Positions 25,908-43,933 of a stretch of DNA of 64,000 bases are shown here, piece by piece (positions within the stretch are counted from its first letter, which is position 1; every line of letters starts with the position of its first letter). The stretch is from Dehalococcoidia bacterium (GTDB taxonomy: Bacteria; Chloroflexota; Dehalococcoidia; Bin125). The notes below the pieces were generated by a model that did not search any database, was not told where the DNA came from, and worked only from the letters and a program-made list of their open reading frames with translations. Location: NCBI GenBank assembly GCA_963663895.2, contig CAXXRD010000005.1, forward strand, positions 1 to 64,000, in the 5' to 3' direction. Both the position numbers and the translations under genes were made by a program.

Positions 25908-28889
<2,982 letters not shown>

Positions 28890-28954
28890 TATTCTGCGGT
28901 TTCAGCAGTGTGTCCCCTTCAGCAAGCTTGTCGGCTCGTGCACTTTTCGAGCGC

Positions 28955-29029
<75 letters not shown>

Positions 29030-41131: not shown

Positions 41132-41974
41132 CTAGCTTGGCGTCCAGGTCACGAGCACGATGGTATCCACCGGCCCTTTGAGCGCGTAGCCGTCGTCGCG
41201 CGCGACAAGATGATCGCCGATCACCTGTCGCAACAGACGCGCTTTATCCGATCCTGCACGCAGCCACAGCCGCCGGCGGGCATCGCTGGTCGCCGCCTCC
41301 CACGAGTCGAAGCCCCAGGCACGTTCGGTGATCTTTCGCAGCGCGGGGCGACGGCCGCGCGCTTCCAATAGACGCAGGAACTCAGGCAGCGCCGGCAACG
41401 GCGCGTAGGGCGATCCGTGGACGGCCTTCCACAAGCCTGCGAACGCTGCTCCCGGTGCGCGATCGAGCAGGAGCGCGACGCAAAGCCGTTTCGCCGCCGC
41501 CTCGAACGCTTCAAGGAAAGGGCCGATCGCCTCAACGTCGTAGCCGACGTGGGTGATCAACGCGACGTCCGCTTGCAGCGCGCGCTGGAGGGGCCAGCGT
41601 TCGCCGATCAGATCGAGGTTCTCGATGCCGTGCTGGGCGCGCACCTCCTCCAGCACCGTCCGCATCGCCTCACTGGGCTCGACGGCGACGACCCGCCGGA
41701 CATGGCGGGCCAGCGCCAGCGTGAAGCGGCCGCCTCCTGCGCCGACATCAAGCCAGGTCTCCTGGGGCTGCGCCAGCGCCAGCAGGGCGTTAAGGCAGGC
41801 ATCGTCCCTGCGGGTGGGATCGGCACGGAATCTCTCGGCGATGGGTGCGTAGAAGTCACTGCCGTCGTCCCGCTCGGCGAGGCGCTCCACCTGTGCGTTG
41901 TTGGCGCGCACGCGGGCTCTCCAGTCGGCGAGGCAGAGCGGGTAGTCCGGCATGCTTGTGCTCCCGCTGGTCAT
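41132..41974 (-). CDS. Class I SAM-dependent methyltransferase
   Basis: WLDVGAGGG and VVAVEPSEAM. Confidence 0.85.
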   Translation of the reverse strand: MTSGSTSMPDYPLCLADWRARVRANNAQVERLAERDDGSDFYAPIAERFRADPTRRDDACLNALLALAQPQETWLDVGAGGGRFTLALARHVRRVVAVEPSEAMRTVLEEVRAQHGIENLDLIGERWPLQRALQADVALITHVGYDVEAIGPFLEAFEAAAKRLCVALLLDRAPGAAFAGLWKAVHGSPYAPLPALPEFLRLLEARGRRPALRKITERAWGFDSWEAATSDARRRLWLRAGSDKARLLRQVIGDHLVARDDGYALKGPVDTIVLVTWTPS

Positions 41975-42084
41975 TCGATTGCCCGCCCTGCGGCGGCCGG
42001 CCCGGCGAGCGGAGATGCGCGACTCCACTGACGCGACCGCGCTACGGTAAGGGGGCGGCTCAGCTACAATTACTGGAGCATCTT

Positions 42085-42999
42085 ATGCATCCCGACTTGC
42101 ATCTCGACAAGCCTCCGCCACTGCGCACGCCCGCCATGATCCTGGCCTGGGGCGGCTGGAGCGACGCGGGCAGTGCCGCCACTCATGGCCTCCGTACGCT
42201 GGCCAACGCCATCGACGCGCAGCCCTGCGGGTCCATCGACCCGGAGAACTACTACGACTTTTCCGTGACGCGGCCGTTCGCCCGCTACCGCGATGGGGAG
42301 CGGGAGATCGTCTGGCCCAGCACGGACTTCTACTACGGCGCGCCGGCCGACGCCGATCGCGACTTGGGCATCGCCATCGGCTCCGAACCGGCCAATCGCT
42401 GGCGAAGCTACACGGAGGCGCTGTTTGACGGGGTGGAGGCCTTCGGCACCGAGCTGGTCATCTCACTGGCGGCGGTCGCCGCGCCCGTCCCCCATACGCG
42501 GCCCGTGGTGGTCTGGGGTGCCGCCAACACGGCTGCGCTGGCGGAGAAACATAACATGCAGCCCCCTGCTTACGAAGGGCCGACCGGCATCGTCGGCGTC
42601 TTCCACGACTACTGCCGTCGCAAAAGCGTCGGCGCGATCAGTCTCTGGGCGAGCGTGCCCCACTATCTCGGCGACACCACGAATCCCGTCGGATCACTGG
42701 CGTTGCTCGAGCGTCTGCAGAAGGTCCTCGATCTGCCCCTCCCGCTCGCCGGGCTGCGCTCGGAGATTTCGCAGTTCCAGGAACAGGTCGACCGTGCGAT
42801 CGCTCGTGACGATGACCTCGCCTCCTATGTGCGCCGCCTGGAATCGTCCGGCAGCCAGCTCGCCTCCTTCGAACCGCCCGCGCCGCGTTCGGAGGAACTG
42901 CCTCCGGCCGAGTCGCTGATCGAGGACTTGGAGCAGTTCCTGCGTGGCACCCAGCAAGATGGCTCCTCACAGCAAGAAGGCGAGCCTCGCGGTGGTTGA
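42085..42999 (+). CDS. PAC2 family protein (proteasome assembly chaperone-like), copy 1
   Basis: GWSDAG, IDPENYYDF..TRP, EP..RW, PHTRP, YEGPTGIVGV and WASVPHY. Confidence 0.88.
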   Translation: MHPDLHLDKPPPLRTPAMILAWGGWSDAGSAATHGLRTLANAIDAQPCGSIDPENYYDFSVTRPFARYRDGEREIVWPSTDFYYGAPADADRDLGIAIGSEPANRWRSYTEALFDGVEAFGTELVISLAAVAAPVPHTRPVVVWGAANTAALAEKHNMQPPAYEGPTGIVGVFHDYCRRKSVGAISLWASVPHYLGDTTNPVGSLALLERLQKVLDLPLPLAGLRSEISQFQEQVDRAIARDDDLASYVRRLESSGSQLASFEPPAPRSEELPPAESLIEDLEQFLRGTQQDGSSQQEGEPRGG

Positions 43000-43492
43000 T
43001 GTCCCCAGCGCCGACGACCACAAAGAGGCTTCCGAGAAAAGCCTCAATAAGATGTGGAAATTCGTCCGTTCCTACGCGGAGAAGAGCGGTACTTTTCTGC
43101 ACCCCCAGCCCGAGATCACCGAGGCGCTGGTGATCGGTCTCGCCAAGCATGTGGATGAGTTTGGGCGGCCCCTCTGTCCCTGCAACTTTTACGAGGACAA
43201 GGCGGAGGAAGTTAAATCATCGACCTGGATCTGCCCGTGCGACGAGATGCAGAAGTGGAAGTACTGCCACTGACTGCTCTTTTGCGATCCGGAAGGTCTT
43301 CCGATCACCGAGTACCTCCCCAAAGACCACGAAGGCCGTGAGATCTATGGGGTGATTCGGGACCCGACGCCCGACAAAGGGCGGGCGATCGGGAGGCTGC
43401 AGGAGAAGACGGGCCGCACGATTCAGAAAAAGAAGCGGGGAGAGGAAAAGAAGCGAGGAGATAGCGAGAGCGTCAAGGACTCGGGCGGCTAA
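42992..43492 (+). CDS. ftrB: Ferredoxin-thioredoxin reductase catalytic subunit-like protein, probable selenoprotein (CH-U, TGA at 43271-43273)
   Basis: GLAKH...GRPLCPC...WICPC...KYCH-TGA-LLF matches the FTR CPC/CPC/CHC-xLF pattern. The frame stays open for 72 more sense codons to TAA at 43490-92. Confidence 0.85.
43274..43315 (+). promoter_or_regulatory. Candidate bacterial SECIS element
   Basis: Immediately 3' of the TGA: TGCTC pairs with GAGTA, GAT pairs with ATC, and CGGAA-[GGTC loop]-TTCCG forms the apical stem. The loop begins with G about 22 nt after the UGA. Confidence 0.7.
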
Positions 43493-43627
43493 ACGGCCGT
43501 GCTCGGTCCGTCGGTTGCGCTGAGGGTGCTTCGCTTGCTTGCTCGGGGTCGCGCCCCGCCGCTACTCTGAGCCGTAATCAGTCACGCGCCGGACGAGCAG
43601 CGGGCCGCGCGGCATCGGGATGGAGCT

Positions 43628-43933
43628 ATGGCGAAGAAAAGCCAGGTCGCCCGCGACGCGAAGCGCCGCGCCATGTACGACAAGCACAGCGCGCGCCGCG
43701 CCGAACTCAAGGCCAAGCTCAAGACTTCCTGGGACGCTCCCATGGCTCGCTCGGAGATTCAGGCTGAGTTGCAGTCGATGCCGCGCAATAGCAGCCCGAC
43801 CCGGCTCAAGAACCGCTGCGCCGTCACGGGACGATCGCGAGGCTACATGCGCAAGTTCGGGCTCTCCCGCATCAGCTTCCGGGAGATGGCTTCCGAAGGT
43901 CTCTTGCCGGGTATTCGCAAGGCCTCCTGGTAG
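43628..43933 (+). CDS. rpsN: 30S ribosomal protein S14, long zinc-independent (C-) form, standalone
   Basis: MAKKS...[35 protein letters not shown]...PGIRKASW, with only one Cys. Confidence 0.97.

Follow-up and report, generated by a model that had tools for sequence, protein, structure and literature searches.

Does a TGA codon that closes an annotated reading frame mark the end of a truncated gene, or can it be read as selenocysteine (Sec, U) in the active site of a longer enzyme? This question was raised by a gene at positions 42992-43492 in a stretch of Dehalococcoidia DNA (positions 1 to 64,000 of contig CAXXRD010000005.1, assembly GCA_963663895.2; the whole 64,000 nucleotides are referred to as the window), for which an earlier sequence-only reading had proposed a hidden selenoprotein related to the catalytic subunit of ferredoxin-thioredoxin reductase (FTR). 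Taken as a whole, the explanation that the locus encodes a Sec-decoded FTR-type thioredoxin reductase is very probably correct, and the evidence is given below together with the alternatives.

A reading frame interrupted at the last cysteine of the FTR motif

The open reading frame (ORF) obtained with translation table 11 terminates in ...KWKYCH at the TGA at 43271-43273, and gene callers end the ORF at 43273. Beyond the TGA the same frame runs for 72 further codons (LLFCDPEGLPITEYLPKDHEG...), reading LLFCDPEGLPITEYLPKDHEGREIYG...DPTPDKGR..., to a TAA at 43490-43492. Translation from the GTG at 42992 with TGA as U gives 166 residues; both the in-frame continuation and the length of the product were as the sequence-only reading had described them. 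The GTG start matches the N-termini (MPLDQP...) of full-length Cys homologues. The motif has the form CPC-x16-CPC-x8-CH-TGA with only one in-frame TGA, the first motif being TGT-CCC-TGC (CPC). The features of the gene are as follows; SECIS denotes a selenocysteine insertion sequence and pLDDT the predicted local distance difference test score of the structural model described below.

42992..43492, plus strand: read-through coding sequence (TGA translated as U) of the FTR catalytic-subunit homologue, predicted to contain Sec; PF02943; same layout in 20/20 orthologue loci examined
43175..43273, plus strand: cluster/redox motif CPC-x16-CPC-x8-CHU, from the gap-free alignment to 1dj7_A and 7bzk_A; codons C62 43175-77, C64 43181-83, C81 43232-34, C83 43238-40, C92 43265-67, H93 43268-70
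43271..43273, plus strand: TGA predicted to be read as selenocysteine U94, in the column of Synechocystis FTR Cys87
43274..43387, plus strand: conserved segment after the Sec, residues 95-132, comprising the end of the FTR fold and the subfamily extension GLPITEYLPxDHEGRxxYGxxxDPxPxKGR
43286..43306, plus strand: SECIS-type hairpin with 8 base pairs, a single bulged base and the apical loop GGUC (43295-43298)
43388..43489, plus strand: Lys/Arg/Glu-rich tail, residues 133-166, poorly conserved, differing in length and sequence among homologues; pLDDT 57-71

PF02943 (FeThRed_B, the FTR catalytic chain) matched residues 17-101 with 90.7 bits against a cut-off of 22 (E 7e-26) and was the only domain found in the whole protein, which is without a fused rubredoxin or glutaredoxin domain. 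When PDB sequences were searched with phmmer, FTR catalytic chains were returned at E 1.7e-25 to 2e-21, and the alignment to 1dj7_A was gap-free (query 14-101 to chain 7-94). In this alignment U94 falls on Cys87, C62 on 55, C64 on 57, C81 on 74, C83 on 76 and C92 on 85. All positions of the CPC-x16-CPC-x8-CHC pattern are thus present with U at the last one, as the earlier placement of the TGA at the last Cys of the CHC motif had it, and C62, C64, C81, C83, C92 and H93 were invariant among 57 aligned sequences. In FTR catalytic chains (CPC, CPC, CHC) the last Cys is part of the redox disulfide beside the 4Fe-4S cluster. We take Cys57-Cys87 (Synechocystis numbering) to be this disulfide, with Cys87 as the partner that interacts with the cluster and the other four Cys as cluster ligands. 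Judged from its sequence, the protein is an FTR catalytic-subunit homologue.

An AlphaFold2 model calculated from the 57-sequence alignment had a mean pLDDT of 82.5 and superposed on 7bzk_A and 1dj7_A with a root-mean-square deviation (rmsd) of 1.4-1.5 Å over 87-89 columns (probability 1.00). Residues 101-140 were modelled with pLDDT 84-90; taken by themselves they matched nothing in structure, PDB sequence or Pfam searches. With the C-terminal 72 residues alone Pfam gave nothing even at E 10, and the best PDB match, to a designed repeat protein at E 0.3, was not meaningful. After the Sec, the columns G102, P104, T106, L109, P110, H113, E114, G115, G120, D124, P125, P127 and G130 were invariant in the 57 sequences. 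The C-terminal extension that had been pointed out earlier is therefore present, but it is not special to the Sec form, since hundreds of Cys homologues have it in common.

Conservation of the TGA and of the downstream frame

In a six-frame search of 61 related genomes an orthologue was found in 36/36 other genomes of the host's family. The TGA lay inside the match in 36/37 genomes of the family, the 37th match being cut off by the contig end before the site. For 20/20 loci that were fetched, the codon after CH was TGA and the downstream peptide was conserved, and any second TGA was the terminal stop. These 20 loci were joined with 80 named loci of metagenome-assembled genomes (MAGs), taken from the GTDB species representatives and labelled as Chloroflexota or Dehalococcoidia apart from one Thermoflexus. 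Some genomes contribute to both locus sets, and the 100 related loci comprise 82 different core proteins and 58 different 51-nt contexts of the TGA. The site column in this set reads TGA in 92 loci, TGC in 7 and TGT in 1.

The downstream frame was conserved in both the TGA and the Cys forms, and Cys homologues that have CHCLLF at the site (60-73% identity) run colinear with the read-through frame. Within codons 12-16 after the TGA the residues are kept while the third positions vary (Thr as ACC, ACG, ACA or ACT; Pro as CCC, CCA, CCG or CCT). On comparison of the codons, such residue conservation with synonymous variation downstream of the TGA is the signature of a translated frame. The homologues thus have either Cys or TGA at this column and the extension follows in both cases, which was the comparison on which the sequence-only reading had staked its proposal. 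A wider sample of 401 genomes of the class contained the gene in 104 at E <= 1e-20; TGA was carried by 26/26 genomes of the host's family, and other families had TGA forms, Cys forms or both. TGA in this sample was scored by its presence in the match and not by column, and the tallies include genome G268, on which none of the conclusions depends.

A protein-database search gave 1978 homologues, of which the best 120 were at most 73% identical; wherever the motif was found among these, it read CHC and the same extension came after it, except that P0021 reads CHW. None of the 74-92% identical orthologues is represented among these best 120 by a full-length read-through protein; the one such form of a close orthologue is P0021, translated with W. 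Public gene calls evidently stop at the TGA, in line with the earlier expectation that pipelines would split the gene.

The TGA was also found in assemblies from other studies. A 2677-nt contig from run X3 (other study) extends across 42700-43700 with 3 differences elsewhere and none listed at 43271-73, and a contig from run X4 (another study, labelled sponge metagenome) covers 42700-43494 with no difference listed at 43271-73. Given that the contigs of these two other studies show the site unchanged, an assembly error at the TGA, such as a misread TGC or TGT, is excluded. RNA runs X19 and X20 contained short contigs on 42952-43086 and downstream of 43494, none of which crosses the TGA at high identity; RNA libraries can contain DNA.

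A hairpin confined to the TGA forms

The hairpin at 43286-43306 begins 12 nt after the TGA, and its loop lies 24-27 nt from the U of the UGA. The sequence-only reading had described a hairpin with a G-initiated 4-nt loop right after the TGA; the loop (GGUC) was confirmed and the position was not, as the stem starts 12 nt later. The core of the hairpin, GGAAGGUCUUCC (a 4-bp stem and the GGUC loop), was invariant in 92/92 TGA loci and absent from 8/8 Cys loci. The Glu-Gly-Leu codons were GAA GGT CTT in 92/92 Sec loci, while the adjoining codons vary freely. This combination never occurred in the 8 Cys loci (GAA 4/8, GGT 0/8, CTT 0/8), where mostly the same residues are encoded by GAG/GAA/GAC, GGG/GGA/GGC and CTG/CTC/TTC/ATG and where there is no such hairpin.

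Compensatory changes were seen in the lower stem, where 2/8 pairs vary on both sides. For the 58 distinct sequences, pair 19-33 was G-C in 35, U-G in 17, C-G in 2 and G-U in 1, and pair 16-36 was G-C in 37, A-U in 6, U-A in 1, G-U in 1 and unpaired in 13. Over the hairpin as a whole 95.9% of the cells pair, compared with 26-63% when the partners are slid by 1-3 columns. An Rfam match to ilvB-OMG near the hairpin was on the other strand and was dismissed as a chance hit.

Selenocysteine machinery of the host genome

All four components that the earlier claim of a selenoprotein presupposed were present in the host genome (G000; 2.37 Mb, 5 contigs, 91% complete): selA with 498 bits, selB with 349 bits, selD with 359 bits and one in-frame TGA, and tRNA-Sec with 71 bits and the anticodon TCA (ARAGORN), each above its cut-off. 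The selD product is itself a selenoprotein (LALCGG-TGA-ASK, at C2:564495-565427, L010 around 1500-2433), and its gene has a small hairpin with a 4-nt G-containing loop 20-23 nt after the UGA, comparable to the hairpin of the FTR gene. By the bSECISearch rule a bacterial SECIS reportedly carries a G in a small apical loop placed some tens of nt 3' of the UGA; as far as loop and spacing can be judged from the letters, the selD hairpin and the hairpin at 43286-43306 both fit this rule.

Thioredoxin system and markers of phototrophy

The FTR variable subunit (PF02941) had 0 matches in the 91% complete host genome, with a positive Synechococcus control, and no reaction-centre gene (PF00124) was found in it. 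The earlier description of a catalytic chain without variable subunit in an apparently non-photosynthetic organism agrees with both results. The genome has 7 Fer2-domain matches and a canonical WCGPC thioredoxin of 108 residues (131.5 bits). The gene for this thioredoxin immediately precedes that for tRNA-Sec, at a distance of roughly 130 nt and in the same orientation.

L131:1489-1815, minus strand: thioredoxin gene, WCGPC, 108 residues, 131.5 bits
L013:1497-1594, minus strand: tRNA-Sec gene; this and the thioredoxin gene lie together at C2 about 665290-665836

No thioredoxin reductase of the NADPH-dependent type (NTR; TIGR01292) was found at E 1e-20 in the host genome and two genomes of the same genus. 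The best TIGR01292 match in the host genome (47.9 bits) was a 655-residue flavoprotein with Pyr_redox_2 and Pyr_redox_dim domains, which is not an NTR. When the comparison was extended to 41 genomes of the family, no NTR was found at E <= 1e-20 in 24/41, including 3/3 of the host genus, 7/7 of genus g9 and 2/2 of genus g3. Given these absences, the Sec-FTR may be the only thioredoxin reductase in several genera including that of the host.

Relation to known systems

FTR was reported as a new selenoprotein family from Global Ocean Sampling (GOS) reads in 2008 (Zhang and Gladyshev, PMC2398784), which bears out the remark in the sequence-only reading that Sec-FTRs had been predicted from marine metagenomes. 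According to Dataset S2 of that paper (PMC2398784), the complete GOS Sec-FTR reads CPU...CPC...CIU in about 103 residues, both redox positions being Sec and the His missing; a second GOS read, with CPU and CPC, stops short of the third motif (PMC2398784). The Sec-FTR family is listed as 'CxU' in two reviews (PMC9312934, PMC13188914), and the latter, from 2026, gives NF041072 with two Sec residues (PMC13188914). The window protein resembles these proteins, as presented in the cited text and dataset, in being an FTR catalytic homologue with Sec at a redox Cys and CxU in the same last-motif column, and in being predicted from an in-frame TGA and a bacterial SECIS. It differs from them in its CPC...CPC...CHU pattern with one Sec, the retained His, its 166 residues and its conserved extension. 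Its NF041072 score was 40.6 bits against a cut-off of 160, and it is for this reason not a member of that equivalog. Within the known Sec-FTR type, the window protein and its TGA-form relatives are a Chloroflexota clade with a single Sec, the His retained and an extended C-terminus.

With the classical FTRs of cyanobacteria and chloroplasts (1dj7, 2pu9, 2puk, 7bzk) the protein shares the gap-free six-residue pattern, the His, 43-47% identity and an rmsd of 1.4-1.5 Å, but it has Sec in place of Cys87 and a different, longer C-terminus without a structural match, and neither a variable subunit gene nor a reaction-centre gene was found in the host. The stand-alone Cys homologues P0002-P0121 from Chloroflexota, Nitrospirota and Methylomirabilota MAGs (52-73% identity) fall in the same length class, carry the conserved C-terminal extension too and are named FTR catalytic chains by their sources; unlike the window gene, they have TGC or TGT at the column, mostly CAC as the second motif, Val four residues further on and no hairpin. 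The ferredoxin disulfide reductase (FDR) of Methanosarcina acetivorans (4tpu) and the glutaredoxin-FDR (Grx-FDR) of Desulfotalea psychrophila (7pwe) are likewise FTR-like Fe-S reductases without variable subunit in non-phototrophs, but similarity to them is far weaker (E 3.6e-9 and 0.003; TM-score 0.38-0.40) and they carry fused rubredoxin or glutaredoxin domains of which the window protein has none.

No description of a single-Sec Chloroflexota FTR was found in the papers retrieved on Dehalococcoidia selenoproteins or on FtrB selenocysteine, and nothing relevant on stand-alone bacterial FTRs was found in those retrieved on ferredoxin disulfide reductases. Dehalococcoidia are ranked by BSepDB among the selenoprotein-rich bacteria (PMC13326102); FTR is not named in the main text or the searched supplement of that paper, and the database itself may still hold these genes.

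Sec and Cys forms in the family

For a maximum-likelihood tree of 199 distinct cores the Sec/Cys column was masked. In this tree 75 sequences, those of the Sec type, made up one side of a single, short branch with a Shimodaira-Hasegawa-like approximate likelihood ratio test (SH-aLRT) value of 73. One Cys/Sec change is thus sufficient for the tree, and multiple Cys-to-Sec switches were set aside because the tree needs only one change, the support being moderate (SH-aLRT 73). Later reversions are possible, since the tree sample is biased towards matches to the Sec query and families with mixed states exist.

The sister of the Sec clade was a small Cys group (P0016, P0019, P0030 and P0053). Two further positions distinguish most Sec forms from most Cys forms: a Cys four residues after the Sec (ULLFC; Cys98, 43283-43285) was present in 92/92 Sec loci and was Val in 8/8 Cys loci, and the second motif was CPC in Sec forms (Pro82, 43235-43237) and CAC in most Cys forms. 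Because the nearest Cys sisters share these traits, with the extra Cys in P0016, P0019 and P0030 and the CPC second motif in P0030 and P0053, both predate the Sec. A separate observation was that 14 residues are inserted after the first CPC and ahead of the second motif in the Cys forms P0076, P0088 and P0110 (alignment columns 107-120); in the class survey many Cys-form matches were split in two at about that place, mostly in family f16 and also in f30 and f38.

Gene neighbourhood and other features of the window and genome

The GTG start of the FTR gene overlaps the TGA stop of an upstream PAC2-family gene by 8 nt (42992-42999), and this overlap suggests translational coupling.

41845..42999, plus strand: PAC2-family gene, PF09754 157 bits, TGA stop at 42997-42999; the true start is probably later than 41845
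43628..43933, plus strand: ribosomal protein S14 gene, PF00253 100 bits, given as context without an inferred functional link

The PAC2, S14, methyltransferase and solute-binding protein neighbours were kept in 53-58/92 Sec loci and 0/8 Cys loci (PAC2 in 57/92 and 0/8; S14 in 58/92 Sec loci). A functional link through the gene neighbourhood was considered and rejected, as the conserved neighbours look like lineage synteny.

A second, distant FTR-like paralogue with Cys throughout (CPC...CVC...CFC; 24.3 bits to PF02943) lies at C2:752950-753168, at the C-terminal end of an open frame (L042:1462-2052, minus strand) whose true start is probably much later. Elsewhere in the window there is a complete 23S rRNA gene at 25908-28891 followed by a tRNA at 28955-29026. 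No 16S or 5S rRNA was found at Rfam gathering scores in the 64 kb beside this 23S gene, which suggests that the rRNA genes are unlinked. DNA near-identical to that at the locus occurs in the run labelled as a sponge metagenome (X4).

Proposed mechanism and alternative explanations

In the mechanism that we favour, SelB with Sec-tRNA(Sec) would read the UGA at 43271-73 as selenocysteine, directed by the hairpin at 43286-43306. C62, C81, C83 and C92 would hold the cluster, C64 would be the surface thiol that attacks the substrate disulfide, and U94, in the place of the inner Cys87, would touch the cluster. The resting enzyme would have a C64-U94 selenenylsulfide beside the cluster. A first electron, from a ferredoxin, would break this bond and free C64 to attack thioredoxin, after which the selenolate would bind cluster iron; a second electron would free the selenolate, which would then resolve the mixed disulfide. 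This scheme is modelled on the established FTR cycle with selenium for the sulfur of Cys87. The substrate is likely to be the host's canonical WCGPC thioredoxin, and the cluster, without a variable subunit, would presumably be covered by the conserved C-terminal extension or by self-association.

Several observations weigh against this explanation or parts of it. That Sec is inserted is an inference, as are the donor of the electrons, the substrate and the Fe-Se intermediate. The folding energy of 43262-43330 was no better than that of shuffled sequences (z = 0.16; 103/200 fold as well), and no SECIS family was found by Rfam, either at gathering thresholds on the whole window or at E up to 10 on 43240-43360. 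The fold and SECIS search suggested earlier was negative in these two respects, while a conserved hairpin with compensatory changes, present in TGA forms only, did come out of the alignment; its significance comes from the comparative data and not from folding energy. The covariation counts are themselves inflated by the relatedness of the loci and by the coding function of the hairpin sequence, with only 2/8 pairs varying on both sides. As for the role of the enzyme, the gene neighbours are uninformative on the substrate, the host genome has the Pyr_redox_2 and Pyr_redox_dim flavoprotein, and 17/41 family genomes have a full-length NTR-like gene of 274-309 bits (below the cut-off of 343), so that the Sec-FTR is not generally the only reductase. 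Finally, the absences are provisional given the 91% completeness of the host genome, the family genomes being 84-99% complete.

It is highly improbable that the TGA is a true stop and that the locus is a truncated or decaying FTR gene, or two genes, with the downstream frame not made. The end of the called ORF at 43273, the hairpin energy, which alone is not significant, and the scarcity of full-length read-through close orthologues (none among the best 120 of 1978 bar the one translated with W) would fit such a stop, but the TGA stands exactly at the Cys column in 92/100 loci, the residues downstream are under purifying selection with synonymous variation, the genome has a complete Sec machinery, and a protein truncated there would keep only one redox-active residue of the two. 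Moreover, an in-frame start codon does not come until GTG 43352, 27 codons past the TGA. Slightly less probable still is another decoding of the TGA, either a genome-wide reassignment of UGA to Trp or Gly or near-cognate read-through inserting Cys or Trp, as the depositor's W at the site column of P0021 might suggest. TGA ends ordinary genes here, namely the upstream PAC2 gene and 11/20 orthologues examined, the homologues have Cys and not Trp at the site column, and the hairpin specific to the TGA forms points to Sec together with selA, selB, selD and tRNA-Sec.

Another alternative accepts the Sec and questions the substrate: the protein could be an FDR-like Sec Fe-S disulfide reductase acting on something other than thioredoxin, e.g. 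a glutaredoxin-like protein, a low-molecular-weight disulfide or a specific enzyme. We consider this unlikely. True FTR catalytic chains match the protein much better (E 1e-25 to 1e-21, with 43-47% identity in the structural match) than do the stand-alone FTR-like structures 4tpu and 7pwe. The weak matches to these two (E 3.6e-9 and 0.003) speak for the alternative, as does the fact that no thioredoxin or ferredoxin gene adjoins the locus. The missing variable subunit and an organism that is no phototroph by the marker tested would suit an FDR as well, but the catalytic His of CHC is kept, PF02943 stands without a fused rubredoxin or glutaredoxin domain, and a canonical thioredoxin is present where no NTR-type reductase was found in the genus. 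A thioredoxin reductase read through with Sec is the explanation that we retain. The further proposition, that the host genus and several other genera of the family have no thioredoxin reductase but this single-Sec FTR, so that thiol-redox there runs on selenium and low-potential ferredoxin and not on NADPH, with an Fe-bound selenolate intermediate, is possible, although we regard it as doubtful.

Significance

As a class the finding is ordinary: it is a Cys-to-Sec swap in a thiol oxidoreductase, of a type known since 2008. Its interest, which is moderate, comes from a Sec placed at an iron-sulfur cluster, from how widely the form occurs in the class and from a possible role as sole thioredoxin reductase in some genera. 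A clade of Chloroflexota genes is at present recorded as truncated proteins of about 93-109 residues, which a profile for the single-Sec subfamily would correct. The Sec occupies only the residue that bonds cluster iron in the FTR cycle and the surface nucleophile is still Cys, which makes the clade a natural experiment on the function of that position, and the position of the Sec offers a 77Se handle on the one-electron intermediate. If the proposed cycle is true, there would be a natural intermediate with a selenolate on [4Fe-4S] iron, open to 77Se spectroscopy. New here is that no NTR-type reductase was found in the host genus and that a selenoenzyme may be its only thioredoxin reductase; if this is true, the supply of selenium and ferredoxin would be central to redox homeostasis in the lineages in which no NTR was found.

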